Counted from the first letter of the stretch, positions 412 to 24,803 are shown. The stretch is DNA of 64,000 nt from an uncultured Thermoanaerobaculia bacterium (GCA_964641415.1 CAZXMW010000001.1:66545-130544), one strand, 5' to 3'. Translations and numbers: made by a program. The notes: generated from the letters alone by a model not told the origin.

Positions 412-427
412 GTGTGACCTGTATCAC
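412..427 (+). promoter_or_regulatory. CRP/FNR-family-like palindrome TGTGACCTGTATCACC (TGTGA-N6-TCAC), 138 nt upstream of adhesin gene 1
   Basis: 9/10 match to the TGTGA-N6-TCACA half-sites. The same core GTGACCTGTATCAC recurs at 12944-12957, at the identical distance from the second adhesin start. It is followed 12 nt later by a conserved GTGGAACC box (439-446). Confidence 0.4.
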
Positions 428-549
428 CCGACCCCGGTCGTGGAACCGACGAACAGTATGCGTCTGGATTCGACCGTTCGTCACCCACAGCATCAGCGCT
501 TCCGGAGGCTTGGATCCGGCGCTGAAGCCATCGCGCCGGGAGGCCCGTC

Positions 550-3500: not shown

Positions 3501-6500
3501 CCTGACCGTCGGACAGTCCTCCGGGACCATCTCGATCGCGGTCGGCGCCGACGAGAAGCACGAGCTCGACGAGAGTTTCGTGGTCAACCTCGGGGCGCCG
3601 GTCAACGGTTCACTGGTCGATGGCCAGGGCGCGGCGACCGTGGCCAACGACGACCCTGAACCGACCCTCTCGGTAGATGATCCCGTTGTCGCTGAGGCCA
3701 CCGGTTCGGCAACGACCCTCGTGTTCACCGTCAGTCTGGATCGGCCCTCGTACCAAATCGTCACCGTCAGCGTCGCGACCTCGGATGGAGATGCCGAGGC
3801 CGGCGCGGACTACGTCGCGATCCCGCCGACAACGATCACGTTTGCGGCCACCGAGACCGTACAGACGGTGCCGGTGACCGTCATCGGCGACGACCTCGAC
3901 GAGCTTGACGAGACCCTCCAGCTCGACCTGAGCTCTCCGGTCAACGCGACCATCGCCGACTCGACCGGCGTCGGAACCATCACCGACGACGACGACACCC
4001 CGACCCTGGCGGTGGCGGACCTCACGGTGGACGAGAACGACGGCGGCGGCGCAGCTCTGGTGCAGGTCACCCTGACCGGCAAGAGCCAGCGCACCATCAC
4101 CGTGGATGCGGCCACCTCCGACGGCGACGCGGCGGCGGGCGCCGACTACACGGCGCAGACGACGACCTTCACGTGGCTCAGTGGCGAGACCGGCGCCCAG
4201 ACCCTGTCGGTCCCGATCACCGACGACGGCGAGGACGAGGCCGACGAGTCCTTCACCGTTTCGTTGTCCTCGGCCGAGGCCGCGACCATCGCGGACGCCG
4301 ATGCGGCCGTCACCATCCGCGACAACGACGCCGATGTCGGCATCAGCAAGACCGACGACTCCGATCTGGCGATCCCGGGCACCCCGCTGACCTACACCAT
4401 CGTGGTCAGCAACCCCGGCCACCACCAGGTCAACGGCGCGACTGTGGCCGACGTCCTGCCACCCGAGGTGCTCGGCGCCACCTGGACCTGCTCCGCCACC
4501 TCGGGCTCGGTCTGTGGTGCGGCGTCCGGGTCAGGCGACATCAACACCACGGTCGACATGGCCCCCGGCGGCTCGGCCACTTTCATCCTCGACGGCACCG
4601 TGTCCGAGACCGGCGAGGGCACGCTCGTGAACACCGCGACGGTGACGCTCGCCCCGGGCTTCCTCTCCGATCCGGACACGAGCGACAACACGGCGTCGGA
4701 CAGCTCGCTCATGGAGCGCCACGCCGACCTCGAGATCACCCTGGTCAACGACATGGACCCGATCGTGGTCGGGACCCCGGGCCGCTGGACGGCAACCCTG
4801 ACCAACCACGGGCCGTCCGACGCTCCGGGCGTCCTCGTCAGCTTCGACCTGCCCGCGGGCGCGGTCTGGGACGACGCCTCGCCGGGCGACTGCAGTCAAG
4901 CAGGCGAAACCGTGACCTGCACCGACGTCGCGTCCCTGGACATCGACGAGTCCGCCTCGTTCACTTTCTCTGCCCACCTCACCGAGCTCCCGGACGCCCC
5001 GAACCCGACGGAATTGACCGTCGGTGCGACGGTCGACTTCGACGACGGCCTCGGCGCGGTCGAGGAGAACCCCGCCAACTCCAGCGCCGTCGACTCAGTG
5101 GAAGTGGGTCCGATCGTGGTCAACACGACGGCGGACGACGACGACGGCCGCTGCACGGTGGGCCATTGCAGCCTGCGCGAGGCGATCTCCCTTGCGAACC
5201 TCAACCCTCCCACCGACGACATCCGCTTCGGCATCCCCGAACCCATGGCGACGCATGGGGTCTACCGGATCGGAGTCAACTCGATCGGCCTCGGCAAGCT
5301 ACCGGTGGTGACCGGCGAGACCCGGTTCAGCGGCGAGTCCCAGCCCGGCTTCGAGGGATCTTCGCTGATCGTGGTCGACGGCGCCGCCGCGCCCTTCGGC
5401 GCGACTGGTCTGAGCCTCACTGGAGGCGCCTCGGTGGTGTCCGCCCTGACGGTGGTGGGATTCACCGGCCATGGCGTGATGCTGTCGAACGCAGGCAACA
5501 ACGAAATCTCCGGATGCACGATCGGTGTCGAGGGCGCCGGTGAAACCGCCAACGGCAACCTCGGCAACGGCCTCTACATCCGGAACGTACCGGACACTCA
5601 CGTTCACGACAGCGTCATCGGCGCCAACGGCCGCAGCGGCATCGTCCTCGAAAGCTCGCGCACGACCGGCTCGTCGATCCATGACTGCTTCATCGGCGTC
5701 GGCATCGGCGGCACGACCGCTCTCGGCAATGGCGAGCACGGGATCTACGTTGTCGGCGCCAGCGACAACGATCTTGGTCCGAGCAACCTGATTGCCAACA
5801 ACAACGTCAACGGCATTTTGGTGTCGACCGGGTTGGGCAATCGGATCGAGGGCAACGAGATTCATGGGAACACGTTGTTGGGGATCGACCTAGCGAACGA
5901 CGGTGTGACGGCGAACGACCCGATGGACGGGGACGATGGCGCGAATCATCTGCAGAACTACCCGGTGCTGACGCGGGTGACTGAGGGGAGCGCGGCGACC
6001 GGGATCGTCGGGGATCTTGCGAGCGCGGCGTCGACGGAGTATGCGGTGGAGTTTTTCGCGAGCTCGGCGTGCGATCCGTCGGGTTACGGCGAGGCGGAGA
6101 CGGTGGTGTGGTCGACGACGGTGACGACCGACGCGGGCGGCGGGGTCCATTTCGAGCTGGCGGCGCCGGTGACGGTGACGGCCGGCTGGTACCTGACGGC
6201 GACGGCGACGGATCCGGACGGCAACACCTCTGAGCTGTCGGCGTGTCGCGAGGTCGAGGCGGCGCCTTCGGTATCGATCGGCGATGTGTCGGTCACGGAG
6301 TCGGACGGCGGCACGAGCGTGACGGCGGCGTTTGCGGTGAGCCTGTCGGCGCCGAGCGGTCTACCGGCCGAGGTGTCGTGGTCGACGGCGGACGGCAGTG
6401 CGGTTGCGGGTCTGGACTACCAGGCGGCTGCGGGCACGGTGGGCTTTGCGCCGGGGCAGACGTCGGCGGTGGTGGAGGTCACGGTGCTCGGCGACGATCT

Positions 6501-9500
6501 CGACGAGTTCGACGAGGTCTTCACGGTGGTTCTGGGCTCTGCGCTGGACTGCACGATCGCCGACGGTGTCGGCGAGGGAGTGATCGTCGACCAGGACGAG
6601 CCGCCGAGCTTTGCGATCGACGATCAGACCGTGGCCGAGGGTGCGGCCGGCACGAGTGTGGACGCGGTCTTCACGGTGACGCTGTCGGCGCCATCGGGCA
6701 AGCCGATCACGGTGGACTGGGCGACGGCGGACGGCACGGCGACGGCGGGCGCGGACTACCAGGCGGGCTCGGGCCAGCTGAGCTTCGCGCCGGGCGAGAT
6801 GACGAAGACCGTCGACGTCATGGTCACTGGTGACGACGTCGACGAGTTCGACGAGACCTTCACGGTGGAGCTGACGGGCGAGAGCAACGCGACGCCGGCC
6901 GATGCGTTGGGTCTGGGGACGATCACGGACGACGACGACGAGCCGTCAGTGTCGATCGGCGACCGGACGGTGACGGAAGGCGCGAGCGGGAGCACGGTGG
7001 ATGCGACGTTTACGGTGAGCCTGTCGGCGGTGTCCGGCAAGGCGATCACGGTGGACTGGGCGACGGCGGACGGCGCGGCGACGGCGCCGGCGGACTATGC
7101 TGCGGCGTCCGGTCAGCTGGACTTTGCGCCGGGCGAGACCGAGCACACGGTCGCGGTGACCGTGGCGGGCGACGACGAGGACGAGGGCGATCACGCGGCG
7201 AGCGTGGAGCTGTCGGGTCTGGTCAACGTCGGTGCCGGTGATCTGTCGGGCGATCTTTTGATCACGGACGACGACGCGGACGTCAACATCACGAAGACCG
7301 ACGGTGTGGCCGAGGCGACGCCGGGGACCGGCCACAGCTACACGGTGACGGTGGCGAATCCCGGCAACCATCAGGTCGACGATGCGGTCGTGACGGACAA
7401 CCTGCCGGCGGCCCTGACCGGGACGAGCTGGAGCTGTGTGGCCTCGGGCGGCGCGGCGTGCGACCAGGCCTCGGGGACCGGCAACCTGTCGACCACGGTC
7501 GATCTGGCGCCGGGCAGCTCGGTGACCTTCACCATCGACGGGACCATTGATCCGTCGGCGCGCGGCGCGCTTTCCAACACCGCGACGGTGGCGCTGGTGG
7601 CCGGGCTGCTGGAGGATCCGAATCTCGCGGACAACACGGCTACGGACAACACCAGCCTGGCGCCGGCCATCGATCTTTCGATCGTGAAGTCTGACGACGC
7701 GGACCCGGTGATTGCGGGGGCGGCGCTGGTCTACACCCTCGAGGTGGGCAATGCCGGTCCCTCCGACGCCACCGGCGTCGAGGTGACGGACACCCTGCCG
7801 GCGGGCGTGAGCTTTGTTTCAGCGTCGCCGGGATGTGTCGAGTCGGCCGGGGTGGTGGCGTGCGCGGTGGGCGATCTGGCGGCGACGGCTTCGACGAACA
7901 TGGTCGTAGCGGTCGATGTCGATCCCGAGACGCGCGGCACCATCAGCAACACAGCGGTCGTCTCGGGTGTCGAGACCGACAGCGATCCCGGAAACGATTC
8001 CGACTCCGAGGACACGGTGGTGGAGGCGTCGGCGGATCTCGATCTGGCCAAGGAGGCGCCGGTTTCGGTGAGCCGCGGCGACAGCTTCGATGTTTCGCTG
8101 ACTGTCACGAACCTCGGTCAGTCGGACGCCTTCGGCGTGGTAGTGGACGACCCGACGCCGCAGGGTTTGACTTTCGACGGTGCGACGGCGCCGTGCGATG
8201 GCGGCTTCCCGTGCGATCTGGGCGCCCTGGAAGCGGGCGCGAGCGCGGCGATCACCGTCAGTCTCACCATCCCGGTCGACTACGACGGGCCGGACCCGAT
8301 CACCAACACGGCTTCGGTGTCCGCGGAGACCCCGGACCCGGTATCGGGGAACAACCTGGCGGCGACCACGACGGCGGTCGACCGGACGCCGGAGGCCGAC
8401 CTGGTGGTGGCCAAGAGCGGGCCGCCGACGGTGGCGCCGGGATCTGCGATCACCTGGAGCGTGACGGTGACCAATGACGGTCCGGATCAGGCGAGTGATG
8501 CGGAGCTCGTCGACACGATTCCGGCCGGTCTGGTGTTTGCGTCGGCCTCGACCGGGTGCGGCGAGGCTGCCGGTGTCGTGACCTGTTTGCTGGGCGATCT
8601 GGCGGCTCATGAGAGCGCGACGGTGGCGATCACGGCGACGGTGCCGGTGGACTACGCGGGCTCTGATCCCATCGTCAACACCGCTACGGTCGGCTCGGCG
8701 GTGGCCGATCCGGATGACACGAACGACTCGGACAGTGCGTCCACGGCCCTGGGTGCGGACACGATGGATCTGTCGATCATCAAGACCGCCCCGGAGACCG
8801 CGGAGCTGAGCGATGTGATCACCTACACCCTGACCGTGACCAACCACGGGCCGGCGACGGCGGTGGGCGTCGTCGCGAGCGACGTGCTGCCGGCGGAGGT
8901 GGCGTTTGTCAGCGCTTCTGCGGGCTGTGCCGAGGGCGGTGGTCAGGTGGACTGCGACTTCGGCGATCTGGCGGCGGGCGCGAGCGCGTCGGCGACGATT
9001 GATGTCGAGGTGATCGCGGCGTCGGGTCTGATCGTCAACACGGCGACGGTGGCTGCGATCGGCCCGATCGACGCCGATGCTTCGAACAACGTCTCCTCAG
9101 CCTCGACGGCGGTCGGTGAGCTGCCGGCCGACGTGGCGGTGACCGTCGATCTGCCGGACGAGGCGGTGCCGGGGCGGGAGCTGCCGGCGACGGTGGTGGT
9201 GACCAACCACGGGCCGGCCGCGGCCTCCGGGGTGAGCCTGGACGTCCCGGCGCCTGCCGGGCTGGCCGAGCTTGGGGTGAGCGCCCCGTGCTCGTCCGGA
9301 TTCCCGTGCAGCCTCGGCGATCTCGCCGCCGGCTCGTCGCGGATCGTGACGGTCAGCTATGCGGTGTCGTCGGACTACGCGGGTCCGGACCCGATCGTGG
9401 TGAGCGCAACCGCGACCACGCTGACGACCGACGCCGATCCGGCGAACGACACCGGAACGGCAACGACGCCGGTGCTGCGGCTGGTCGATCTGGCCGTGGA

Positions 9501-12500
9501 TCTGGTGGACCTGCCGGATCCGGTGGTGGCGGGCAGCGGAGTTGGAAACCTCGGCTACACGCTGACTCTGGTCAACGCTGGTCCGACCGACGCGTCGAAC
9601 GCGACCGTCGATCTCGGCACGGTGCTGCCGGCCGGGGTGAGCGTGGTTTCGGTGACGCCGGTGAGCGGCAGCTGGGCTGGGTCGACCTGGACGGTGGCGT
9701 CGCTGCCGGCGGGGGGCTCTGAGAGCCTGATCATGCTGCTGACGGTGGACGCGACGGCGGCGCACGGGGCCATTATTTCGGCGACTGCGACCGTGACCGG
9801 CGCGGCTGAGGTCCTGATCAACTTCGGCGACGACACGGCGACCGAGATGACGACGGTCACGCGGGCGGTGGATCTCATCGTGGACGTGGCCGAGAGCGCG
9901 GACCCGGTGGTCGCGGGCTCGGGCGCCGGGAACGTCGTCCACACGGTGACCGTGACCAACGCCGGTCCGTCGATGGCGACGGGCGTGGTCCTCAGCGAGA
10001 TACTGACGCTGCCGGCGGGCGCGAGCCTGGACTCGGCGACGCCGAGTCAGGGCGGCTATGCGGTCCCGGCGTGGACGGTGGGCGAGCTGCCCGTGGGCGC
10101 GTCGGCGACGCTGACCATGGTGGTCACGGCCTCGGCCGACGCGGCCGACGGCTCGACGGTGGATTCCAGCGCGGCGGTCACGGCCGCCAACGAGGCACTG
10201 GTCAACACCGGCGACGACGCGGACTTTGAGAGCACGACCATCAACCGCGAGGTGGACCTGGCGGTGGCGGTGACGGAGAGCGTCGACCCGGTGGTCGCGG
10301 GCTCGGGCGCGGGCAACCTCACTCATGTCGTGACCGTCACCAATCACGGTCCGTCGTTTGCGACCTCGCTGGGGCTCGACGTCACGGCCGCTCTGCCTTC
10401 GGGGGTGATCCTCGACTCGGCGGTGGCGAGCCAGGGCGGTTTCGTGGCTCCGGCGTGGACGGTGGGCGAGCTGCCCGTGGGCGCGTCGGCGACCCTGACC
10501 CTGACCTTCAGCGTCGGGGAAGAGGCCGTGGACGGCGCCGAGATCACGACCGGCGCGGCGGTTTCCGGCGCGGCCGAGACCATCGTCAACCCGGGCGACG
10601 ACGCGGCTGTCGAGGCCACCACGGTGAGCCGTGAGCACGACGTCTCGGTGACCATCACCGAGTCGGTCGACCCGGTGGCGGCGGGTGCGCCGTCGCCGAG
10701 CCTGACCTACGTCGTGATCGCCCGCAACTTCGGTCCATCGGGCGTCTCCGGGCTCACTCTCGACGTCGCGACGACGCTGCCGGCGGGCGTGGTGATCGAG
10801 GACATCATTCCCTCGGCGGGGGTTTTCGCCGACCCGACGTGGACGGTGGGCGAGCTGGGCAACGGAGCGAGCGAGACGCTGACCATCCAGCTCGGGGTGT
10901 CGAGCGCGGCGGCGGACGGCTCGCAGATCAGCTGCGGGGCGGGCGTCACGGCGGCATCCGGCACGCTCCTCAACCCCGGGGACGACTCGGCGCTTGAGGT
11001 CACCACGGTGATCGCCGAGGCGGACCTCGAGCTGGCGGCGGCTCAGAGCGTCGACCCGGTCGTCGCGGGCTCGGGCGCCGGCAATCTGGTGCACACTGTG
11101 ACCGTCACCAACCATGGTCCGTCGGACGCCCTCGCGACCGCGGTCGACATCGCCGTCGTTCTGCCTGCGGGAGCGACCCTGGACAGCGTTGTGCCGAGTG
11201 CGGGCGGCTGGGCCGACCCGGTTTGGACGGTGGGCGACCTGGCGTCCGGGGCGTCGGCTTCGGTGGAGCTGGTGTACACCGTCGGTGCGTCGGCGGCGGC
11301 CGGCGGCGCGATCGAGCTGGCGGCGGCGGCGACGGCCTCGGTGTCGCTCGTCAACCCCACCAACGACGCAGTCGCGGTGTCGACCCTGGTCGACGCGCTG
11401 ACCGACCTCGAGCTCGACAAGTCCGACGGCGAGGACCCGCTCGTCAGCGGTCCCGACCTCGCCTACACCCTCGAGGTCCTCAACCACGGTCCCTCAGACT
11501 CCACCGGCGCAACGGTCGTCGACATGCTGCCCGCCGAGGCCTCCTTCGTGTCGGCCTCGCCGGGCTGCGTCCACGACTCGGGCACGGTGACCTGCGCGCT
11601 GAGCGGGGTCGCGGCCGGCGCCTCGGCCCTGCTCGTCATCGAGGTCACGGTCGACCCGACCGCGCCCTTCATCGACAACACCGCCTCCGTGGCCGCCGAC
11701 GAGCCGGACCCCGTCCCGGGCAACGACGCCGACACCGAACGGACGACCCTCGACGTGGTCCCGCCGCAAGTCGACCATCTCCTGTCCACAGCCTCCGACG
11801 ACGACGGCGTCCTCGACGAGTGCGACACCATCACCGGTGAAATCGTCACCCTCGGCGTCGTCTTCGACGAGATCATGCACGACCCGCCGGGCGACACCGA
11901 GCCCCTCGACGTCACCAGCCCCGACGCCTACCTCCTGGTCGGCGCCGGCCCCGACGCCGACATCGACACCGTCGACTGCTCCGGCGTCCTCGGCGACGAC
12001 ATCGCCGTCCCCGTCGATGCGGTCGGCTACTCGGCCGCCTCGAGCACCGCGACCCTGTCCTTCCCCTACCCCGTGACCCTCAGCCACGACCTGCACCGCT
12101 TCGTCCTGTGCGCGGACCGCCTCGCCGACCGCGCCGGCAACCTCCTCGACGGCGACGGCAACGGCTCTCCCGGCGACCACCACGTCACCACCTTCAGGGT
12201 CGACGCCCACAACCTCTTCGACAACGGGCACCTCGACTGCTCTCTCGACGCGTGGACCGCCGTCTCGACCTTGCCCGAGGAGATCGAGTACGACCCCGCC
12301 GACGTCGACGACTCCTCCCTCTCCGGCTCCGCCCACATCACCTACCTCGCACCTCAGCCCTACATCGGCGTCAGCCAGTGCAGGCCTCTCGACGGCGCCC
12401 ACGACCTCACCCTCGCCGCCGAGATCGCCCTCCATCCCACCAGCAACTACACCGCCACCATCCACCTCCAGTGCCTCTCCTTCGACACCACCGACTGCTC

Positions 12501-12768: not shown

Positions 12769-12795
12769 CCCCTCGACCCTCCCAACCCTCCTCCC

Positions 12796-12829
12796 GCGCC
12801 CGGGGCAGCCCCCCGGGCGCCCCTTTTTC
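12796..12829 (+). terminator. Rho-independent terminator candidate after adhesin 1
   Basis: Perfect 10-bp GC stem GCGCCCGGGG (12796-12805) / CCCCGGGCGC (12811-12820) with a 5-nt loop, followed by CCCTTTTTCC. It lies 28 nt after the stop codon. Confidence 0.7.
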
Positions 12830-12942
12830 CTGACCCGGCCGGCAACAAAAAGCTCCCGGCTGTCAGGCCAACGCCGTCCACGAATGACGGCCGCGGAACG
12901 CGAGGCCTCGGTGACCGGTCCGAGCGGGAACGGAAAAATCCC

Positions 12943-12958
12943 GGTGACCTGTATCACA
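12943..12958 (+). promoter_or_regulatory. CRP/FNR-family-like palindrome GGTGACCTGTATCACA upstream of adhesin gene 2
   Basis: 9/10 match to TGTGA-N6-TCACA with the identical spacer CCTGTA. It lies 138 nt upstream of ATG 13081, the same distance as site 412-427 from ATG 550. A GTGGAACC box at 12970-12977 has the same spacing. Confidence 0.4.
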
Positions 12959-13080
12959 ACCGGACGTCTGTGGAACCAATGACCGGAATGGAAGCGCTCA
13001 AGCCTCAAGCCTCATTGGTCGGATCGACGACAACCGTGATCCTGCCCACCATCGGAACAGCTTTCCAGCGGAGGTCATCC

Positions 13081-16000: not shown

Positions 16001-19000
16001 TCTACACGATCCGGGTCGGGGGTCCGAGCGGCTCGCTCGGGACGCTGCCGGTCATGACCGACCAGGTCGTCATCGACGGACCGAGTCAGCCGGGGTACGC
16101 GGGCGATCCGATCATCGAGCTCGACGGAACACTGGCCGGATTCGGGAGCAACGGGCTCACCGTCCTTGCCGGTTCGTCGGTTGTCGACTCCCTCGTCGTC
16201 AACCGTTTCGAGGGCCACGGAGTCTACCTCGCCGGCGCCGGCGGAGATCAGGTTCTCGGGTGTCGGATCGGCATCGACTCGGGGGGCCTCTCGCCGCTGT
16301 CGAACGGCGGCAACGGCATCTACATTCGCGATGTGCCGAACACGGTCATCGGCGGTGCGGCCGCGGGCCAGGGCAACCTGATCGGCGCCAACGGGCTCAG
16401 CGGCATCGCCGTCGAGTCGGCAGGCGCGGTTGACGGCACGATCGAGGGCAACGTCATCGGCGTCGGTAGCGACGGGGCCACCCGGCTCGGCAACGGTCGC
16501 CACGGTATTCACATCCTCGGCGCCTCGAACACGACGATTGGAGGAGCCGATGCCGGCGCGGGCAACACCATTGCCAACAACAACGTCAACGGCATTTTGG
16601 TGTCGACCGGGTTGGGCAATCGGATCGAGGGCAACGAGATTCATGGGAACACGTTGTTGGGGATCGACCTAGCGAACGACGGTGTGACGGCGAACGACCC
16701 GATGGACGGGGACGATGGCGCGAATCATCTGCAGAACTACCCGGTGCTGACGCGGGTGACTGAGGGGAGCGCGGCGACCGGGATCGTCGGGGATCTTGCG
16801 AGCGCGGCGTCGACGGAGTATGCGGTGGAGTTTTTCGCGAGCTCGGCGTGCGATCCGTCGGGTTACGGCGAGGCGGAGACGGTGGTGTGGTCGACGACGG
16901 TGACGACCGACGCGGGCGGCGGGGTCCATTTCGAGCTGGCGGCGCCGGTGACGGTGACGGCCGGCTGGTACCTGACGGCGACGGCGACGGATCCGGACGG
17001 CAACACCTCTGAGCTGTCGGCGTGTCGCGAGGTCGAGGCGGCGCCTTCGGTATCGATCGGCGATGTGTCGGTCACGGAGTCGGACGGCGGCACGAGCGTG
17101 ACGGCGGCGTTTGCGGTGAGCCTGTCGGCGCCGAGCGGTCTACCGGCCGAGGTGTCGTGGTCGACGGCGGACGGCAGTGCGGTTGCGGGTCTGGACTACC
17201 AGGCGGCTGCGGGCACGGTGGGCTTTGCGCCGGGGCAGACGTCGGCGGTGGTGGAGGTCACGGTGCTCGGCGACGATCTCGACGAGTTCGACGAGGTCTT
17301 CACGGTGGTTCTGGGCTCTGCGCTGGACTGCACGATCGCCGACGGTGTCGGCGAGGGAGTGATCGTCGACCAGGACGAGCCGCCGAGCTTTGCGATCGAC
17401 GATCAGACCGTGGCCGAGGGTGCGGCCGGCACGAGTGTGGACGCGGTCTTCACGGTGACGCTGTCGGCGCCATCGGGCAAGCCGATCACGGTGGACTGGG
17501 CGACGGCGGACGGCACGGCGACGGCGGGCGCGGACTACCAGGCGGGCTCGGGCCAGCTGAGCTTCGCGCCGGGCGAGATGACGAAGACCGTCGACGTCAT
17601 GGTCACTGGTGACGACGTCGACGAGTTCGACGAGACCTTCACGGTGGAGCTGACGGGCGAGAGCAACGCGACGCCGGCCGATGCGTTGGGTCTGGGGACG
17701 ATCACGGACGACGACGACGAGCCGTCAGTGTCGATCGGCGACCGGACGGTGACGGAAGGCGCGAGCGGGAGCACGGTGGATGCGACGTTTACGGTGAGCC
17801 TGTCGGCGGTGTCCGGCAAGGCGATCACGGTGGACTGGGCGACGGCGGACGGCGCGGCGACGGCGCCGGCGGACTATGCTGCGGCGTCCGGTCAGCTGGA
17901 CTTTGCGCCGGGCGAGACCGAGCACACGGTCGCGGTGACCGTGGCGGGCGACGACGAGGACGAGGGCGATCACGCGGCGAGCGTGGAGCTGTCGGGTCTG
18001 GTCAACGTCGGTGCCGGTGATCTGTCGGGCGATCTTTTGATCACGGACGACGACGCGGACGTCAACATCACGAAGACCGACGGTGTGGCCGAGGCGACGC
18101 CGGGGACCGGCCACAGCTACACGGTGACGGTGGCGAATCCCGGCAACCATCAGGTCGACGATGCGGTCGTGACGGACAACCTGCCGGCGGCCCTGACCGG
18201 GACGAGCTGGAGCTGTGTGGCCTCGGGCGGCGCGGCGTGCGACCAGGCCTCGGGGACCGGCAACCTGTCGACCACGGTCGATCTGGCGCCGGGCAGCTCG
18301 GTGACCTTCACCATCGACGGGACCATTGATCCGTCGGCGCGCGGCGCGCTTTCCAACACCGCGACGGTGGCGCTGGTGGCCGGGCTGCTGGAGGATCCGA
18401 ATCTCGCGGACAACACGGCTACGGACAACACCAGCCTGGCGCCGGCCATCGATCTTTCGATCGTGAAGTCTGACGACGCGGACCCGGTGATTGCGGGGGC
18501 GGCGCTGGTCTACACCCTCGAGGTGGGCAATGCCGGTCCCTCCGACGCCACCGGCGTCGAGGTGACGGACACCCTGCCGGCGGGCGTGAGCTTTGTTTCA
18601 GCGTCGCCGGGATGTGTCGAGTCGGCCGGGGTGGTGGCGTGCGCGGTGGGCGATCTGGCGGCGACGGCTTCGACGAACATGGTCGTAGCGGTCGATGTCG
18701 ATCCCGAGACGCGCGGCACCATCAGCAACACAGCGGTCGTCTCGGGTGTCGAGACCGACAGCGATCCCGGAAACGATTCCGACTCCGAGGACACGGTGGT
18801 GGAGGCGTCGGCGGATCTCGATCTGGCCAAGGAGGCGCCGGTTTCGGTGAGCCGCGGCGACAGCTTCGATGTTTCGCTGACTGTCACGAACCTCGGTCAG
18901 TCGGACGCCTTCGGCGTGGTAGTGGACGACCCGACGCCGCAGGGTTTGACTTTCGACGGTGCGACGGCGCCGTGCGATGGCGGCTTCCCGTGCGATCTGG

Positions 19001-22000
19001 GCGCCCTGGAAGCGGGCGCGAGCGCGGCGATCACCGTCAGTCTCACCATCCCGGTCGACTACGACGGGCCGGACCCGATCACCAACACGGCTTCGGTGTC
19101 CGCGGAGACCCCGGACCCGGTATCGGGGAACAACCTGGCGGCGACCACGACGGCGGTCGACCGGACGCCGGAGGCCGACCTGGTGGTGGCCAAGAGCGGG
19201 CCGCCGACGGTGGCGCCGGGATCTGCGATCACCTGGAGCGTGACGGTGACCAATGACGGTCCGGATCAGGCGAGTGATGCGGAGCTCGTCGACACGATTC
19301 CGGCCGGTCTGGTGTTTGCGTCGGCCTCGACCGGGTGCGGCGAGGCTGCCGGTGTCGTGACCTGTTTGCTGGGCGATCTGGCGGCTCATGAGAGCGCGAC
19401 GGTGGCGATCACGGCGACGGTGCCGGTGGACTACGCGGGCTCTGATCCCATCGTCAACACCGCTACGGTCGGCTCGGCGGTGGCCGATCCGGATGACACG
19501 AACGACTCGGACAGTGCGTCCACGGCCCTGGGTGCGGACACGATGGATCTGTCGATCATCAAGACCGCCCCGGAGACCGCGGAGCTGAGCGATGTGATCA
19601 CCTACACCCTGACCGTGACCAACCACGGGCCGGCGACGGCGGTGGGCGTCGTCGCGAGCGACGTGCTGCCGGCGGAGGTGGCGTTTGTCAGCGCTTCTGC
19701 GGGCTGTGCCGAGGGCGGTGGTCAGGTGGACTGCGACTTCGGCGATCTGGCGGCGGGCGCGAGCGCGTCGGCGACGATTGATGTCGAGGTGATCGCGGCG
19801 TCGGGTCTGATCGTCAACACGGCGACGGTGGCTGCGATCGGCCCGATCGACGCCGATGCTTCGAACAACGTCTCCTCAGCCTCGACGGCGGTCGGTGAGC
19901 TGCCGGCCGACGTGGCGGTGACCGTCGATCTGCCGGACGAGGCGGTGCCGGGGCGGGAGCTGCCGGCGACGGTGGTGGTGACCAACCACGGGCCGGCCGC
20001 GGCCTCCGGGGTGAGCCTGGACGTCCCGGCGCCTGCCGGGCTGGCCGAGCTTGGGGTGAGCGCCCCGTGCTCGTCCGGATTCCCGTGCAGCCTCGGCGAT
20101 CTCGCCGCCGGCTCGTCGCGGATCGTGACGGTCAGCTATGCGGTGTCGTCGGACTACGCGGGTCCGGACCCGATCGTGGTGAGCGCAACCGCGACCACGC
20201 TGACGACCGACGCCGATCCGGCGAACGACACCGGAACGGCAACGACGCCGGTGCTGCGGCTGGTCGATCTGGCCGTGGATCTGGTGGACCTGCCGGATCC
20301 GGTGGTGGCGGGCAGCGGAGTTGGAAACCTCGGCTACACGCTGACTCTGGTCAACGCTGGTCCGACCGACGCGTCGAACGCGACCGTCGATCTCGGCACG
20401 GTGCTGCCGGCCGGGGTGAGCGTGGTTTCGGTGACGCCGGTGAGCGGCAGCTGGGCTGGGTCGACCTGGACGGTGGCGTCGCTGCCGGCGGGGGGCTCTG
20501 AGAGCCTGATCATGCTGCTGACGGTGGACGCGACGGCGGCGCACGGGGCCATTATTTCGGCGACTGCGACCGTGACCGGCGCGGCTGAGGTCCTGATCAA
20601 CTTCGGCGACGACACGGCGACCGAGATGACGACGGTCACGCGGGCGGTGGATCTCATCGTGGACGTGGCCGAGAGCGCGGACCCGGTGGTCGCGGGCTCG
20701 GGCGCCGGGAACGTCGTCCACACGGTGACCGTGACCAACGCCGGTCCGTCGATGGCGACGGGCGTGGTCCTCAGCGAGATACTGACGCTGCCGGCGGGCG
20801 CGAGCCTGGACTCGGCGACGCCGAGTCAGGGCGGCTATGCGGTCCCGGCGTGGACGGTGGGCGAGCTGCCCGTGGGCGCGTCGGCGACGCTGACCATGGT
20901 GGTCACGGCCTCGGCCGACGCGGCCGACGGCTCGACGGTGGATTCCAGCGCGGCGGTCACGGCCGCCAACGAGGCACTGGTCAACACCGGCGACGACGCG
21001 GACTTTGAGAGCACGACCATCAACCGCGAGGTGGACCTGGCGGTGGCGGTGACGGAGAGCGTCGACCCGGTGGTCGCGGGCTCGGGCGCGGGCAACCTCA
21101 CTCATGTCGTGACCGTCACCAATCACGGTCCGTCGTTTGCGACCTCGCTGGGGCTCGACGTCACGGCCGCTCTGCCTTCGGGGGTGATCCTCGACTCGGC
21201 GGTGGCGAGCCAGGGCGGTTTCGTGGCTCCGGCGTGGACGGTGGGCGAGCTGCCCGTGGGCGCGTCGGCGACCCTGACCCTGACCTTCAGCGTCGGGGAA
21301 GAGGCCGTGGACGGCGCCGAGATCACGACCGGCGCGGCGGTTTCCGGCGCGGCCGAGACCATCGTCAACCCGGGCGACGACGCGGCTGTCGAGGCCACCA
21401 CGGTGAGCCGTGAGCACGACGTCTCGGTGACCATCACCGAGTCGGTCGACCCGGTGGCGGCGGGTGCGCCGTCGCCGAGCCTGACCTACGTCGTGATCGC
21501 CCGCAACTTCGGTCCATCGGGCGTCTCCGGGCTCACTCTCGACGTCGCGACGACGCTGCCGGCGGGCGTGGTGATCGAGGACATCATTCCCTCGGCGGGG
21601 GTTTTCGCCGACCCGACGTGGACGGTGGGCGAGCTGGGCAACGGAGCGAGCGAGACGCTGACCATCCAGCTCGGGGTGTCGAGCGCGGCGGCGGACGGCT
21701 CGCAGATCAGCTGCGGGGCGGGCGTCACGGCGGCATCCGGCACGCTCCTCAACCCCGGGGACGACTCGGCGCTTGAGGTCACCACGGTGATCGCCGAGGC
21801 GGACCTCGAGCTGGCGGCGGCTCAGAGCGTCGACCCGGTCGTCGCGGGCTCGGGCGCCGGCAATCTGGTGCACACTGTGACCGTCACCAACCATGGTCCG
21901 TCGGACGCCCTCGCGACCGCGGTCGACATCGCCGTCGTTCTGCCTGCGGGAGCGACCCTGGACAGCGTTGTGCCGAGTGCGGGCGGCTGGGCCGACCCGG

Positions 22001-23547
22001 TTTGGACGGTGGGCGACCTGGCGTCCGGGGCGTCGGCTTCGGTGGAGCTGGTGTACACCGTCGGTGCGTCGGCGGCGGCCGGCGGCGCGATCGAGCTGGC
22101 GGCGGCGGCGACGGCCTCGGTGTCGCTCGTCAACCCCACCAACGACGCAGTCGCGGTGTCGACCCTGGTCGACGCGCTGACCGACCTCGAGCTCGACAAG
22201 TCCGACGGCGAGGACCCGCTCGTCAGCGGTCCCGACCTCGCCTACACCCTCGAGGTCCTCAACCACGGTCCCTCAGACTCCACCGGCGCAACGGTCGTCG
22301 ACATGCTGCCCGCCGAGGCCTCCTTCGTGTCGGCCTCGCCGGGCTGCGTCCACGACTCGGGCACGGTGACCTGCGCGCTGAGCGGGGTCGCGGCCGGCGC
22401 CTCGGCCCTGCTCGTCATCGAGGTCACGGTCGACCCGACCGCGCCCTTCATCGACAACACCGCCTCCGTGGCCGCCGACGAGCCGGACCCCGTCCCGGGC
22501 AACGACGCCGACACCGAACGGACGACCCTCGACGTGGTCCCGCCGCAAGTCGACCATCTCCTGTCCACAGCCTCCGACGACGACGGCGTCCTCGACGAGT
22601 GCGACACCATCACCGGTGAAATCGTCACCCTCGGCGTCGTCTTCGACGAGATCATGCACGACCCGCCGGGCGACACCGAGCCCCTCGACGTCACCAGCCC
22701 CGACGCCTACCTCCTGGTCGGCGCCGGCCCCGACGCCGACATCGACACCGTCGACTGCTCCGGCGTCCTCGGCGACGACATCGCCGTCCCCGTCGATGCG
22801 GTCGGCTACTCGGCCGCCTCGAGCACCGCGACCCTGTCCTTCCCCTACCCCGTGACCCTCAGCCACGACCTGCACCGCTTCGTCCTGTGCGCGGACCGCC
22901 TCGCCGACCGCGCCGGCAACCTCCTCGACGGCGACGGCAACGGCTCTCCCGGCGACCACCACGTCACCACCTTCAGGGTCGACGCCCACAACCTCTTCGA
23001 CAACGGGCACCTCGACTGCTCTCTCGACGCGTGGACCGCCGTCTCGACCTTGCCCGAGGAGATCGAGTACGACCCCGCCGACGTCGACGACTCCTCCCTC
23101 TCCGGCTCCGCCCACATCACCTACCTCGCACCTCAGCCCTACATCGGCGTCAGCCAGTGCAGGCCTCTCGACGGCGCCCACGACCTCACCCTCGCCGCCG
23201 AGATCGCCCTCCATCCCACCAGCAACTACACCGCCACCATCCACCTCCAGTGCCTCTCCTTCGACACCACCGACTGCTCCGGCGCCCCCGTCGACGGCGA
23301 CGCCGCTGAAATCCTCATCCCCAACCCCTCCGGCGCCTGGCTCCATGTCGAGGCCCCGCTCCTCTCCGCCGAGGCCACCGCCTCCATCGCCTGCGACGTC
23401 CTCATCGTCGACCCCGAAGGCGGCTTCAACGAGGCCTATCTCGACAACCTCCACCTCTTCGACCACGGACCTGCCCACCTCAACGCCATCTTCACCGACG
23501 GCTTCGAGTCAGGAACGACATCCGCATGGAGTTCCTCCACCCCCTGA
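13081..23547 (+). CDS. Giant secreted multidomain adhesin-like protein 2 (about 3488 aa; ORF opens at GTG 12970)
   Basis: ATG 13081 has GGAGG at 13070-13074 and starts a signal peptide MFATSSRRVVSLVMLLILTLAIPGWVLAEP. The unique N-terminal third has an unassigned domain of about 430 aa, 2 Ig-like units, a cadherin domain (PENSLGGTLVGTLDTIDPN..), Calx-beta units and a CTLREAI beta-helix. From nt 16570 onward the translation is identical to adhesin 1. Confidence 0.9.
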   Translation: MFATSSRRVVSLVMLLILTLAIPGWVLAEPEDAAVLVETRKAGARMLLDPDDILVAIPEATAIAELGLAPGAAVELPEGSPFRVDGSLLVAARQLVFDASGVHTVTIVSADGDREQVEIMLPLVAGPETKTMVGNEVFLQGSYVEVGMAEGGFFGTSGAAPTGFHEIGRSTLGFVADYGRDGWTTGSPAQTGDYFLPGSPFEGWSVKWDEGGTVYGNFGGTTQNFPMQAVTETSAGSTQAAAWVGELTTGSGSLRALQNVAFESDDLFFVMSVTLENIGSTTLTNVRYLRSVDPDQEVDLGGDYSTLNSVHYQPGTTGNPDKALVVANGQIWGLTLGLGTFDSRAVVTTESPWPQDPDAVIGSPEAPSPSSPTNADAAIALAFSLGDLAPGQTVSFSYAYILNADDLDVALGNLEAVTILQPGGTISGTNVPFHATTSDPANTTQVEFFINGTSIGFDTTPDAGGVFGLTFNSTDYPNGTLYKFLKAEATFADGSKASKSATVTIANDGPPVVFVTPISGASVDGDDLPVEVEGTDPLHLPASVSFFRETSGTGSIFLGEITSAPFATTYDTSDLPTDETVVLKAIATDSVGNETVIYTSVTTAINYPPTDITLSPTSVPENSLGGTLVGTLDTIDPNTWDTFTYELLDDAGGRFQISGGQLQVAPGADLNYEVASSHSIEVRSTDSGGHQVGRVFTITVINVAEPLISVADLTVSEGDGTAEVVLTLADPSASPTSVTCATSDGTAVAVEDYTATSAIVTWPGGSGGAQVCSVPIVDDGRYAPSESFSVTLSSPVNGEITDGSAVVTITDDDDPPTIDADADRTVDETDGSIELTVTMTNQCEQTVTVDAATADGSALAGSDYTSVSTVLTWSAGEDGPRTVTVTITDDDIDEDDEAFSLELANPVNAAIGDGQTGVTITDDELVVNTTSDHNDGACTVADCTLREAILASNARAQDDTIRFAIPAGMASGGIYTIRVGGPSGSLGTLPVMTDQVVIDGPSQPGYAGDPIIELDGTLAGFGSNGLTVLAGSSVVDSLVVNRFEGHGVYLAGAGGDQVLGCRIGIDSGGLSPLSNGGNGIYIRDVPNTVIGGAAAGQGNLIGANGLSGIAVESAGAVDGTIEGNVIGVGSDGATRLGNGRHGIHILGASNTTIGGADAGAGNTIANNNVNGILVSTGLGNRIEGNEIHGNTLLGIDLANDGVTANDPMDGDDGANHLQNYPVLTRVTEGSAATGIVGDLASAASTEYAVEFFASSACDPSGYGEAETVVWSTTVTTDAGGGVHFELAAPVTVTAGWYLTATATDPDGNTSELSACREVEAAPSVSIGDVSVTESDGGTSVTAAFAVSLSAPSGLPAEVSWSTADGSAVAGLDYQAAAGTVGFAPGQTSAVVEVTVLGDDLDEFDEVFTVVLGSALDCTIADGVGEGVIVDQDEPPSFAIDDQTVAEGAAGTSVDAVFTVTLSAPSGKPITVDWATADGTATAGADYQAGSGQLSFAPGEMTKTVDVMVTGDDVDEFDETFTVELTGESNATPADALGLGTITDDDDEPSVSIGDRTVTEGASGSTVDATFTVSLSAVSGKAITVDWATADGAATAPADYAAASGQLDFAPGETEHTVAVTVAGDDEDEGDHAASVELSGLVNVGAGDLSGDLLITDDDADVNITKTDGVAEATPGTGHSYTVTVANPGNHQVDDAVVTDNLPAALTGTSWSCVASGGAACDQASGTGNLSTTVDLAPGSSVTFTIDGTIDPSARGALSNTATVALVAGLLEDPNLADNTATDNTSLAPAIDLSIVKSDDADPVIAGAALVYTLEVGNAGPSDATGVEVTDTLPAGVSFVSASPGCVESAGVVACAVGDLAATASTNMVVAVDVDPETRGTISNTAVVSGVETDSDPGNDSDSEDTVVEASADLDLAKEAPVSVSRGDSFDVSLTVTNLGQSDAFGVVVDDPTPQGLTFDGATAPCDGGFPCDLGALEAGASAAITVSLTIPVDYDGPDPITNTASVSAETPDPVSGNNLAATTTAVDRTPEADLVVAKSGPPTVAPGSAITWSVTVTNDGPDQASDAELVDTIPAGLVFASASTGCGEAAGVVTCLLGDLAAHESATVAITATVPVDYAGSDPIVNTATVGSAVADPDDTNDSDSASTALGADTMDLSIIKTAPETAELSDVITYTLTVTNHGPATAVGVVASDVLPAEVAFVSASAGCAEGGGQVDCDFGDLAAGASASATIDVEVIAASGLIVNTATVAAIGPIDADASNNVSSASTAVGELPADVAVTVDLPDEAVPGRELPATVVVTNHGPAAASGVSLDVPAPAGLAELGVSAPCSSGFPCSLGDLAAGSSRIVTVSYAVSSDYAGPDPIVVSATATTLTTDADPANDTGTATTPVLRLVDLAVDLVDLPDPVVAGSGVGNLGYTLTLVNAGPTDASNATVDLGTVLPAGVSVVSVTPVSGSWAGSTWTVASLPAGGSESLIMLLTVDATAAHGAIISATATVTGAAEVLINFGDDTATEMTTVTRAVDLIVDVAESADPVVAGSGAGNVVHTVTVTNAGPSMATGVVLSEILTLPAGASLDSATPSQGGYAVPAWTVGELPVGASATLTMVVTASADAADGSTVDSSAAVTAANEALVNTGDDADFESTTINREVDLAVAVTESVDPVVAGSGAGNLTHVVTVTNHGPSFATSLGLDVTAALPSGVILDSAVASQGGFVAPAWTVGELPVGASATLTLTFSVGEEAVDGAEITTGAAVSGAAETIVNPGDDAAVEATTVSREHDVSVTITESVDPVAAGAPSPSLTYVVIARNFGPSGVSGLTLDVATTLPAGVVIEDIIPSAGVFADPTWTVGELGNGASETLTIQLGVSSAAADGSQISCGAGVTAASGTLLNPGDDSALEVTTVIAEADLELAAAQSVDPVVAGSGAGNLVHTVTVTNHGPSDALATAVDIAVVLPAGATLDSVVPSAGGWADPVWTVGDLASGASASVELVYTVGASAAAGGAIELAAAATASVSLVNPTNDAVAVSTLVDALTDLELDKSDGEDPLVSGPDLAYTLEVLNHGPSDSTGATVVDMLPAEASFVSASPGCVHDSGTVTCALSGVAAGASALLVIEVTVDPTAPFIDNTASVAADEPDPVPGNDADTERTTLDVVPPQVDHLLSTASDDDGVLDECDTITGEIVTLGVVFDEIMHDPPGDTEPLDVTSPDAYLLVGAGPDADIDTVDCSGVLGDDIAVPVDAVGYSAASSTATLSFPYPVTLSHDLHRFVLCADRLADRAGNLLDGDGNGSPGDHHVTTFRVDAHNLFDNGHLDCSLDAWTAVSTLPEEIEYDPADVDDSSLSGSAHITYLAPQPYIGVSQCRPLDGAHDLTLAAEIALHPTSNYTATIHLQCLSFDTTDCSGAPVDGDAAEILIPNPSGAWLHVEAPLLSAEATASIACDVLIVDPEGGFNEAYLDNLHLFDHGPAHLNAIFTDGFESGTTSAWSSSTP

Positions 23548-23699
23548 CCCCTCGACCCTCCCAACCCTCCTCCCGCGCCCGGGGCAGCCCCCCGGGCGCC
23601 CCTTTTTCCTGACCCGGCCGGCAACAAAAAGCTCCCGGCTGTCAGGCCAACGCCGTCCACGAATGACGGCCGCGGAACGCGAGGCCTCGGTGACCGGTC
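16570..23699. repeat. Copy 2 of the 7,130-bp direct repeat
   Basis: See copy 1; offset is +10,779 bp and the spacer between copies is 3,649 bp. Confidence 0.9.
23575..23608 (+). terminator. Rho-independent terminator candidate after adhesin 2 (part of the repeat)
   Basis: Same GCGCCCGGGG-cagcc-CCCCGGGCGC hairpin plus T5 run as at 12796-12829. Confidence 0.7.
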
Positions 23700-23856
23700 A
23701 CCAAGGTCCTGCGGTCATCGGCCACGGCGGGCGGGTGTGCCGGAGGCTGACAGCTGACAGCCGACAGCCGACAGCTGAGGGCTTGAAACCTCAGACCGCC
23801 GGCTCGGCCACCAGCTTCGTAGGCGCCATCCCAGCGTCACCAGGGTCCGTCCGGAG

Positions 23857-24786: not shown

Positions 24787-24803
24787 TGTCCGGATTCCGG
24801 TCA
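24787..24803 (+). promoter_or_regulatory. Putative enhancer (UAS) palindrome TGTCCGGATTCCGGTCA
   Basis: 16/17 identical to the site at 38206-38222. Its centre lies about 83 nt upstream of the predicted sigma-54 start site. Confidence 0.5.

Follow-up and report, generated by a model that had tools for sequence, protein, structure and literature searches.

[quoted passage not shown] The Bartonella henselae badA island, which comprises badA, a badA pseudogene and a badA-like domain region, contains tandem giant adhesin genes whose C-terminal (anchor) segments are identical; through recombination, one gene's N-terminal part becomes fused to its neighbor's C-terminal part, and resolving the locus takes long reads (PMC8859334). 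Fibrillar adhesins built on DUF11, a stalk domain now renamed CLIPPER, combine a signal peptide, a long stalk in which CLIPPER and other Ig-like domains follow one another in tandem, and putative adhesive domains at one end, as in B9T28_05395 of Acinetobacter silvestris (PMC12617251). The yeast FLO adhesin paralogues, which are duplicates of cell-surface genes, swap segments by ectopic recombination (PMC3512402), and certain prokaryotic paralogues are subject to long-lasting concerted evolution, such that paralogues within a genome are closer than orthologues between genomes (PMC6053082).

Here we describe a pair of genes, A and B, that resembles each of these systems in part. The pair lies in a 64,000-nt stretch of DNA from an uncultured Thermoanaerobaculia bacterium; this whole stretch is referred to as the window. 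The bab genes are ~2.2 kb long, dispersed and encode beta-barrel outer-membrane proteins (PMC5483490), whereas A and B are in tandem, measure 10.5-12.2 kb, encode fibrillar repeat proteins and share, on the 3' side only, a 7.1-kb tract that includes the terminator. BadA, a trimeric autotransporter, has neck/stalk repeats; its partners are pseudogenes or fragments forming a 'toolbox', and large rearrangements set the strains apart (PMC8859334). Unlike these, A and B are both intact, have their own putative promoters and keep a constant arrangement in the three fully read loci of a related organism (L008, L009 and L010). B9T28_05395 has an OmpA-like anchor, whereas A and B end in a CBM-like module that belongs to an uncharacterised family and has a DGFESGxxSAW tail; PMC12617251 contains no description of two genes on one stalk sequence. 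Finally, the FLO system is eukaryotic, subtelomeric and driven by internal repeats (PMC3512402), and the cases in PMC6053082 are mostly short housekeeping genes, as opposed to a 7-kb part of a giant adhesin-like pair.

An exact repeat joining two giant genes

The features of the locus are as follows.

414..461, + strand: upstream motif of A, GTGACCTGTATCAC, ~9 nt, GTGGAACC...ATG, ~135 nt 5' of the start codon
550..12768, + strand: gene A, giant repeat protein, putatively secreted, 4072 aa, fibrillar-adhesin-like; GC3 of the ORF 0.89
550..5790, + strand: unique head of A, 1747 aa, 80% identical to the head of its orthologue P0341
5791..12920, + strand: repeat copy 1, 7,130 bp; last 2325 codons of A, stop, terminator, 152-bp 3' flank
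6220..7260, + strand: three shared Calx-beta domains (3 stretches, E 2.8e-49; 339-nt period, copies 62-70% identical)
7261..11940, + strand: twelve DUF11/CLIPPER (CnaA-like Ig) stalk domains in 6+5+1 stretches
11941..12765, + strand: C-terminal module, 275 aa; small domain, CBM-like jelly-roll beta-sandwich, disordered tail DGFESGTTSAWSSSTP
12796..12820, + strand: intrinsic-terminator-like hairpin of copy 1, 10 G-C pairs, then CCCTTTTT
12944..12991, + strand: upstream motif of B, 24 nt past the right edge of copy 1
13078..23547, + strand: gene B, giant repeat protein, putatively secreted, 3489 aa from the ATG at 13078
13078..16569, + strand: unique head of B, 1164 aa; ~440 aa without Pfam match, then Big_7, cadherin, two Calx-beta domains, CTLREA motif, beta-helix
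16570..23699, + strand: repeat copy 2, 7,130 bp; last 2325 codons of B, stop, terminator, 152-bp 3' flank
23575..23599, + strand: terminator-like hairpin of copy 2, identical to 12796-12820 (offset 10,779)

Not one mismatch separates positions 5791-12920 from positions 16570-23699, which match exactly along all 7,130 bp at an offset of 10,779; the match is maximal and its edges are sharp. A sequence-only reading of the window had proposed this direct repeat and had held that scattered mismatches would weaken an interpretation as gene conversion; there are none. At the same offset the flanks show 25-44% identity in windows of 100 nt, as expected at random in DNA of 69.5% G+C, and chance is therefore not the cause of the match. 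The domain repeats within the stalk are only 60-77% identical to one another at the DNA level, which means that complete identity is specific to the pair of gene copies.

In each of two long plus-strand ORFs the repeat opens with a complete codon (phase 0), and it runs through the last 2325 codons of both genes, the stop codon and the terminator to 152 bp past the stop. The shared codons with the stop make up 57% of A and 67% of B, in line with the common 3' part and ~2,300-aa stalk read earlier. At the left junction the first identical codon is the ATT of IANNNVNGILV. In the 262 codons that could be aligned 5' of this point A and B agree at 47% of amino acids, 59% of nucleotides and 52% of third positions; there is no gradient towards the junction, where nucleotide identity steps from 59% to 100%. 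The half-matching residues and the jump within this motif, first judged by eye, were thus borne out, as was the position of the right junction, 152 bp 3' of the stop, downstream of a 10-bp G+C hairpin with its adjoining T-run (12796-12820). Beyond the right junction the two flanks have no similarity; the edge is abrupt and abuts unrelated DNA. The longest word common to the 800-nt left flanks is 14 nt, and neither these nor the right flanks compared contain a long identical stretch that could anchor homologous recombination, so that the outer edges must go back to rarer events, homeologous or illegitimate.

Simple tandem segmental duplication of the whole unit, head to tail, was considered and rejected: identity covers no more than 7,130 bp of the 10,779-bp period, and the other 3,649 bp (12921-16569 against 2142-5790) are unrelated or at most similar in patches of 66-82%. 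The repeat can reasonably be expected to form a hotspot for deletion of the 10.8-kb unit, as the sequence-only reading had it.

Identical stalks might be maintained by purifying selection alone, with no exchange of DNA. The stalk encodes conserved domain types, a fact that is not specific to this explanation. Against it, third-position identity is 52% before the junction and 100% after it, a change for which selection at the level of the protein offers no explanation, and the identical tract takes in the stop, the terminator and, as non-coding DNA, 152 bp of 3' flank. In addition, the stalk is only 69% (protein) and 75% (DNA) identical to its orthologue in a related organism, and the internal domain repeats are but 60-77% alike. 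Identity at synonymous and non-coding sites refutes purifying selection as sole cause, and we give it next to no credence.

Two heads, one stalk

The ORF of gene B is open from a GTG at 12970 (3525 aa). We prefer the ATG at 13078 because it has the ATGTTC start and GGAGG spacing seen in A, because its distance from the upstream motif equals that in A, and because it opens the signal-peptide-like MFATSSRRVVSLVMLLILTLAIPGWVLA. The N-termini of both proteins look like Sec signal peptides (basic n-region, hydrophobic core, AxA-like site). The exact 14-mer of the upstream motif occurs only at the gene A site and at 12944 (0.18 matches expected at up to 2 mismatches), local alignment of the A and B motifs gave a significance of 1/500 shuffles, and variants are present 5' of both orthologous genes in a contig of the related organism (L007).

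Domains were assigned with Pfam and NCBIfam profiles. The head of A contains Reelin_subrepeat-B, PKD, fn3/Ig, Flg_new_2, C-type lectin, two Big_9/Cadherin_5 domains, Calx-beta, DUF11, a CSLREA motif and most of a right-handed beta-helix. The CSLREA motif (TIGR04214) scores 40.6 bits at residues 1522-1550 of A and 32.4 bits at residues 963-990 of B, against a cut-off of 25, and is followed in both proteins by the Beta_helix/NosD matches. The earlier description of the heads as lectin/PKD (A) versus cadherin/Ig (B) was roughly right, A having Reelin-B, PKD, fn3, C-type lectin and Big_9/cadherin-like domains and B Big_7, cadherin and Calx-beta. The first ~440 aa of B have no match in Pfam, and their predicted fold is a beta-supersandwich (model pLDDT 74); Foldseek matched this model to the N-domains of GH94, GH116 and mutarotase at E ~1e-7 but with a TM of ~0.36.

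The shared part consists of the end of the beta-helix, three Calx-beta domains, twelve DUF11/CLIPPER stalk domains and the 275-aa CBM-like C-terminal module. PF01345 (DUF11/CLIPPER) scored 689 bits over 14 stretches in A, above its curated cut-off, and TIGR01451 scored 257 bits. The isopeptide bond of this family involves a Lys-Asn pair and a catalytic Asp; some DUF11 domains are known to be without it (PMC12617251). The tandem Ig-like repeat stalk by which fibrillar adhesins are recognised is thus present in the shared part, as 12 DUF11/CLIPPER and 3 Calx-beta domains. The C-terminal module matched no Pfam family; its AlphaFold model (pLDDT 83) has Foldseek matches to CBM16, CBM61 and CBM22 at E ~1e-7. 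The module, whose family is uncharacterised, is found in 675 cluster representatives, nearly always at the extreme C-terminus, and its tail motif is invariant among 17 homologues. A search of A and B with Pfam and NCBIfam for OmpA-like, LPXTG, PEP-CTERM, GlyGly-CTERM, T9SS and autotransporter anchors found none. Candidate binding modules, judged from profiles and models, are the C-type lectin and Reelin-B domains of A, the predicted beta-supersandwich of B and the CBM-like C-terminus of both.

The orthologous pair and the source of the identity

Comparison with the orthologous locus, which the sequence-only reading had named as a check, was made with one related species, in which the metagenome contigs L007-L010 are among those that carry the locus. 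P0341 is orthologous to A and collinear with it over its full length, with 74% identity across 4040 aa, and on L007-L010 a tandem gene, B' (3172 aa), lies downstream of A'. The 24 of 24 contigs of the relative that were read group as one place with mostly the same neighbor genes, and this suggests that all 24 keep both genes, which tempers the idea of a deletion hotspot. Sequence at these loci stops 212 nt short of the B' stop codon, and the right edge of the repeat is beyond its reach.

The relative bears on the possibility that the repeat is an assembly artefact, with one stalk copy, or two clearly diverged ones, turned into an identical pair by duplication or collapse of a graph edge. The source does resemble a metagenome-assembled contig, the final 2,457 bp of the repeat are represented in the short-read graph by one edge only, and a loop traversal would yield copies that are identical by construction. 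However, two independent Logan short-read contigs of the window's organism (SRR7048221) match it exactly, one at 10464-12920 (L006) and one at 23670-36125 (L001), the latter starting exactly 30 nt (k-1) inside the right end of copy 2. These ends are what a k=31 graph holding a two-copy repeat predicts; the break at the right edge, which a real branch requires, makes a gross artefact unlikely. Moreover, the unique head of B joins the repeat in frame at both ends, and the relative has the same tandem order on contigs of 1-6.35 Mb, with the two stalk copies assembled separately (L008, 6.35 Mb; L009, 1.02 Mb). A 20-kb contig of the relative also runs from the A' stalk through the intergenic region and the B' head back into the stalk. 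An artefact, raised as an alternative in the sequence-only reading, is accordingly very improbable.

As a separate matter, traversal of the loop (R-Bu-R) from short reads would in itself force the copies to be identical, and a few genuine differences might have been lost; the figure of exactly zero mismatches in the window's organism may in part reflect contig assembly.

The two parts of the genes have different histories. In the beta-helix before the junction, amino acid identity is 76% for A-A' and 70% for B-B', as against 48% for both A-B and A'-B'; this orthologous pairing indicates that the A-B duplication is older than the species split. The stalks, in contrast, group by genome: between organisms they are 75% (DNA) and 69% (protein) identical, whereas the two copies within the relative's genomes differ at 2 of 6,654 sites in L008 and 9 of 6,654 in L009 (99.86-99.97% identity). 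Grouping by orthologue upstream and by genome in the stalk is evidence of concerted evolution through repeated conversion, as opposed to one recent duplication.

Polymorphism in the relative points the same way. The L008 and L009 strains differ at 58-59 sites per stalk copy (0.9%), and the ~58 strain-specific sites are present in both copies within a strain, so that homogenisation must be faster than strain divergence. The haplotype A-C-C (L008 coordinates 18655/18664/18679) is carried by copy 2 in L009 but by copy 1 in L007, L008 having C-T-G in both copies; its presence in different copies of different strains shows exchange between the copies. The switch point is at aa 1748 in the window's organism and at aa 1778 in the relative, and across these 30 codons the window's shared sequence is nearer to B' (67-70% of amino acids) than to A' (57%), which means that conversion from B into A shifted the edge in the window's lineage.

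These data also bear on the alternative that the identity goes back to one very recent event, whether segmental duplication of 7.1 kb or an isolated conversion, with no continuing homogenisation. Such an event would account for zero mismatches and sharp edges. The right edge lies in unrelated DNA and the left edge in sequence more diverged than ordinary RecA recombination would tolerate, a combination that points to an illegitimate founding event. Yet a species whose stalk DNA is 25% diverged has the same arrangement with copies 99.9% alike, and strain-specific alleles are carried by both copies, which would require independent recent events in each lineage and strain. We regard a single recent event as improbable; the founding event may well have been of the single or illegitimate kind, but old.

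Taken together, identity is greater within genomes (100% and 99.86-99.97%) than between them (75% of DNA), duplication preceded divergence (orthologous pairing of flanks, tandem order kept), an abrupt boundary lies inside homologous sequence at the left edge, with the relative's step 30 codons downstream, and, in the relative only, polymorphisms are shared by or moved between copies. It is thus highly probable that A and B are old tandem paralogues of which one chassis is kept (near-)identical by recurrent homologous gene conversion. Of the two origins first proposed, recent gene conversion or segmental duplication, conversion stands, as a continuing and concerted process, and recent duplication does not, because the pair predates the species split.

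A shared chassis and its possible meaning

Recurrent conversion could operate as follows. A and B would encode giant, Sec-exported, fibrillar-adhesin-like surface proteins, each gene having a promoter region of its own, in which the conserved upstream motif recurs, and a separate, presumably distal head. Exchange by conversion of the two 7.1-kb tracts, probably of the RecA type, would homogenise the DNA of the chassis, including stop, terminator and 152-bp flank, while heads outside the tract would be free to diverge or even to be replaced; the presumably distal head of B has been replaced between the two species. Both genes are probably expressed and co-regulated, their products are probably adhesins, and sharing a chassis presumably brings a functional benefit. 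Gene conversion that renews identity is a known process, here on an unusually large scale.

The CBM-like C-terminal module is the fastest-evolving part of the protein, with 37-42% amino acid identity between species compared to 70-80% for the remainder, yet it is identical between the two genes of one genome. This raises the idea, which we offer tentatively and consider rather unlikely, that the shared segment is a selected 'common chassis', more than a by-product of recombination. If so, conversion would let two adhesins with interchangeable heads jointly track one rapidly co-evolving partner. Candidates for this partner are a cell-surface glycan peculiar to the species, an anchor and an export factor; the CBM-like module and the DGFESGxxSAW tail would be the parts that recognise it. 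A modular head-on-chassis arrangement would then be a principle on which the giant surface proteins of a widespread, uncharacterised family are built.

Two genes with one 3' end

The tandem genes A and B encode giant surface proteins in which different heads (the unique N-terminal parts) precede the same stalk of Calx-beta and DUF11 domains and the same C-terminal module.

Genes A and B and the tract that they share (window positions)
550-12768, + strand: gene A, 4072 aa
13078-23547, + strand: gene B, 3489 aa from the ATG at 13078 (the ORF is open from a GTG at 12970)
5791-12920: copy 1 of the repeat
16570-23699: copy 2 of the repeat
12796-12820: terminator-like hairpin within the repeat, 10 G-C pairs and a T-run
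11941-12765: C-terminal module, 275 aa; identical copy at 22720-23544

The sequence-only reading had taken copies 1 and 2 to be identical, and a full comparison bears this out: at an offset of 10,779 all 7,130 of 7,130 positions match, with 0 mismatches, and the repeat is the maximal exact match. Flanking sequence at the same offset shows 25-44% identity, the random level for DNA of 69.5% G+C. The repeat begins in phase 0 within two long + strand ORFs of strong GC3 bias and comprises the last 2325 codons of both genes, the stop codon, the terminator-like hairpin and 152 bp of 3' flank; this 7.1-kb tract makes up 57-67% of the two giant genes.

Upstream of the left junction (the start of identity) A and B share 47% of amino acids, 59% of nucleotides and 52% of third positions (262 aligned codons). 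Identity shows no gradient towards the junction and steps to 100% at the ATT of the motif IANNNVNGILV. The longest exact word common to the left flanks (800 nt each) is 14 nt, and the right flanks, compared beyond the repeat edge, show no relationship. A short tandem repeat, GCTGACA (4.7 copies, 23746-23778), lies 47 nt past copy 2; two others occur at 344-369 (GAGAGCAC, 3.2 copies, directly after the stop of the gene upstream of A) and at 12992-13014 (AAGCCTC, 3.1 copies, in the leader of B).

One rival is that purifying selection alone kept the copies alike. Identity extends to synonymous sites and to non-coding DNA, which protein-level selection cannot explain, and this rival is contradicted. 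Domain repeats within the stalk are only 60-77% identical at the DNA level, so the perfect identity is specific to the two gene copies. The exact repeats between neighboring Calx-beta or DUF11 units measure 32 nt (6704-6735 and 7043-7074) and 44 nt (10066-10109 and 10450-10493).

A second rival is that the repeat is an artefact of assembly. The source contig appears to be metagenome-assembled, from an uncultured bacterium possibly related to Acidobacteriota: a PilT protein encoded in the window has 100% matches from NCBI and from Logan, and its nearest named relatives, in Thermoanaerobaculia (Acidobacteriota), stand at 70-73%. If the contig was built by loop traversal, then the two copies match by construction, which may have erased a few real differences. 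Logan contigs assembled from the short reads of run SRR7048221, which no paper in the searched literature mentions, agree with the window at 100%: L001 covers 23670-36125 and L005 covers 46186-52592. The first base of L001 lies within copy 2, exactly 30 nt (k-1, with k=31) from its right end. Graph logic predicted a unitig running from just past the internal 44-nt repeat (10066/10450) to the last base of the repeat; the predicted product (10465-12768) was found, and its contig, L006 (2,457 bp), spans 10464-12920 exactly. The ends of L001 and L006 therefore indicate a short-read graph in which the repeat forms one edge and truly branches on the right, which supports the existence of two distinct right flanks in the reads and contradicts the artefact. 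The internal 32-nt and 44-nt repeats are long enough to split k=31 unitigs, which explains the fragmentation of the short-read contigs. Short-read assemblies break or collapse at such repeats, and giant adhesin pairs like this one can therefore be expected to be under-reported in metagenome-assembled genomes; "identical" copies in assemblies need long-read confirmation.

The pair in a related organism

A protein of a related organism (hereafter the relative), P0341, was recovered only by an exhaustive HMMER profile search; scans with the last 400 aa, run against GTDB genomes and JGI metagenome contigs, gave only partial matches (44-47%). P0341 (4065 aa) is a collinear orthologue of A, with 74% identity over 4040 aa and 4 gaps. 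Identity is 80% in the head, 69% in the shared part and only 37-42% in the C-terminal CBM-like module, the fastest-diverging part between the two species. The gene for P0341, A', is followed by a tandem counterpart of B, B', on a 20-kb contig (L007) whose end cuts B'. Full-length copies of the 90% cluster of P0341 lie on Mb-scale JGI contigs (71 contigs, one of 6.35 Mb). On two of these, L008 (6.35 Mb) and L009 (1.02 Mb), A' (4065 aa) precedes B' (3172 aa) and the stalk copies were assembled separately. The 24 contigs of the relative that were read group as one place with mostly the same neighboring genes, which suggests that both genes are retained. In one strain of the relative (L010, JGI 3300056928), whose locus otherwise equals that of L009, an extra C in a C-run at position 17928 divides A' into two ORFs (2840 and 1232 aa); the extra base is a sequencing error or else a genuine frameshift, which might be phase-variable. 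P0103, a distant stalk homologue (41%), was considered as a second case and rejected, its locus having no comparable tandem pair.

Comparison by segment separates the history of the heads from that of the tract. Before the junction A and A' are 76% identical and B and B' 70%, while A and B, like A' and B', are 48% identical. The pairing is orthologous, so the duplication is older than the species split, and a single recent duplication is contradicted. Past the window's junction the picture changes. Over the first 30 codons the sequence shared by A and B matches B' at 67-70% and A' at only 57%, with A' and B' themselves still distinct (50%). From residue 1778 of A' onwards A' and B' are nearly identical, and the same piece is 68-69% identical in nucleotides between the species; for stalk DNA as a whole the figure is 75%. 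The left edge of the tract is thus offset by 30 codons between the two organisms. These 30 codons are the only part of the tract that can be assigned by origin, and they are B-type; at least one conversion in the window's lineage therefore ran from B to A. That the stalk is native to A, as the collinearity of A' and A might imply, was dropped: B' also has A's stalk, and the direction of transfer therefore cannot be read from the A'-A comparison.

Strains of the relative carry the argument further. The sequence-only reading had proposed a comparison with orthologous loci, and the A'-B' pair provides it: over the 6,654 nt between the switch point and the end of the retrieved locus, 2 mismatches separate copy 1 from copy 2 in L008 and 9 do so in L009, with none of these sites in common. 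Between L008 and L009 58-59 sites differ per stalk copy, and the heads differ at 61 of 5,332 sites (A') and 24 of 2,653 (B'). Copies are alike within a strain and strains differ; a stalk allele specific to one strain is therefore, in nearly every case, shared by its two copies. A three-SNP haplotype is carried by copy 2 in L009 but by copy 1 in L007, and L008 has the alternative haplotype in both copies. Homogenisation in the relative, as measured, is faster than strain divergence. The segment and strain comparisons together support and extend the earlier suggestion of gene conversion.

Heads, C-terminal module and surroundings

The start of B is most likely the ATG at 13078, because it shares with the start of A its ATGTTC codons, the spacing to GGAGG and the distance to a common upstream motif, and because a signal-peptide-like sequence opens there.

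Domain order in the proteins
Head of A: Reelin_subrepeat-B, PKD, fn3/Ig, Flg_new_2, C-type lectin, two Big_9/Cadherin_5, Calx-beta, DUF11, CSLREA motif, right-handed beta-helix
Head of B: about 440 aa, then Big_7, cadherin, two Calx-beta, CTLREA motif, beta-helix
Shared part: last beta-helix coils, 3 Calx-beta, 12 DUF11 (renamed CLIPPER, which PMC12617251 places in fibrillar-adhesin stalks), 275-aa C-terminal module

The first ~440 aa of B (13078-14400) match no family in Pfam. Many large proteins begin with a homologue of this segment (45-55% identity), among them HYR-domain proteins of Geobacter, Electrothrix and Nitrospinae MAGs. Structure prediction (pLDDT 74) gives the segment a beta-supersandwich similar to the N-domains of GH94/GH116 enzymes and mutarotases, a likeness at the level of fold only (E ~1e-7, with a low TM-score of ~0.36). 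PKD/K319L-like domains make up the distal head of B' (L007 17704-18780; L008 22892-23970), which has none of the beta-supersandwich, Big_7 and cadherin modules of B, while the Calx-beta, CTLREA and beta-helix part of B' does have its orthologue in B; the head has thus been exchanged and the body conserved.

Pfam has no family for the C-terminal module. Its model (pLDDT 83) comprises a small domain and a jelly-roll beta-sandwich like CBM16/CBM61/CBM22, then a disordered tail; the tail motif, DGFESGxxSAW, does not vary among 17 homologues. Some 675 cluster representatives, proteins of 290 to >6000 aa, carry the module, nearly always at the extreme C-terminus. Among the Pfam/NCBIfam domains of A and B there is no recognised anchor or sorting domain, and the module may be an uncharacterised anchoring or export signal.

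Upstream element and neighboring genes
414-461 and 12944-12991 (window), 4712-4760 and 17444-17495 (L007): conserved upstream element
24879-25583: ECF sigma gene, downstream of gene B
25922-27061: DUF11 protein, 379 aa, in the downstream region
39786-40766: PapD-like chaperone, adjoining the gene for an 862-aa protein

The upstream element, a candidate shared promoter or operator, precedes the coding sequences of A, B and A' by ~90-135 nt and takes the form of a T-rich run, GnGACnnGTATCAC, ~14 nt, GGAACC, ~12 nt and ATG. The B' copy lies 247 nt before the called start, and the true start of B' is probably further upstream. An exact 14-mer of the element occurs in only two places in the window, upstream of A and of B. 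Extended homology between the sequence upstream of A and the A-B intergenic region was rejected: only the ~48-nt motif is significant, and for the preceding sequence 971 of 1000 shuffles scored as high or higher. Sigma-54 and ECF-type readings were also set aside, spacing being inconsistent across the four copies, and Rfam gave no family match in either 5' leader or in window 1-27000.

A third surface-protein gene, whose product ends in a DUF11-like domain (CTWTC...DPDLDNNQA), is truncated where the window begins; its 3' end occupies positions 1-341 (+ strand, frame 3). The relative has a small TPR gene and dnaE at this position, so the upstream neighbor is not conserved. The region 23857-64000 is rich in signalling genes: the ECF sigma factor, at least seven PAS/GAF histidine or hybrid kinases, a GGDEF response regulator, a sigma-54 activator, PilT and a HEAT-repeat protein with a T2SSE-type ATPase domain.

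Probable concerted evolution of the stalk

The data fit concerted evolution, in which the stalk and C-terminal module, terminator included, are continually homogenised by gene conversion within an old tandem pair. Heads outside the tract would diverge or be replaced while the tract stays homogenised. Flanks this diverged cannot anchor ordinary homologous recombination, so rare events, homeologous or illegitimate, probably set the outer edges; routine conversion, which we infer to be of RecA type, would then take place within the identical tract. Expression and co-regulation of A and B, and their role as adhesins, are likewise presumptive. The repeat may fairly be regarded as a possible deletion hotspot, as had been proposed, because 7-kb direct repeats are recombination substrates; the grouping of the relative's 24 contigs, however, suggests that both genes are kept there.

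The pair is a further case of a known phenomenon, and the mechanism is not new. Among its closest parallels is babA/babB/babC of H. pylori, where homologous 5' and 3' ends surround a divergent binding region and conversion is RecA-dependent (PMC5483490). The others are the badA island of Bartonella henselae, where tandem adhesin genes and pseudogenes with identical anchor segments recombine (PMC8859334), the ectopic recombination of yeast FLO adhesin genes (PMC3512402) and the long-lasting concerted evolution of prokaryotic paralogues (PMC6053082). The present pair differs from these four in its 7.1-kb tract (2325 codons, terminator included), in the confinement of sharing to the 3' side, and in that both partners are intact, each with its own candidate promoter motif. 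It differs also in encoding a CLIPPER-stalk fibrillar protein with an uncharacterised C-terminal module, in an uncultured bacterial host.

As an instance of natural bacterial concerted evolution the pair is unusually clean and large, with step-like edges and an arrangement conserved across two species: a textbook-quality example of moderate interest, which points to an uncharacterised family of C-terminal modules. One cell could show different binding heads on an identical stalk and C-terminal module, and that module would probably set the surface attachment or export of many giant proteins.
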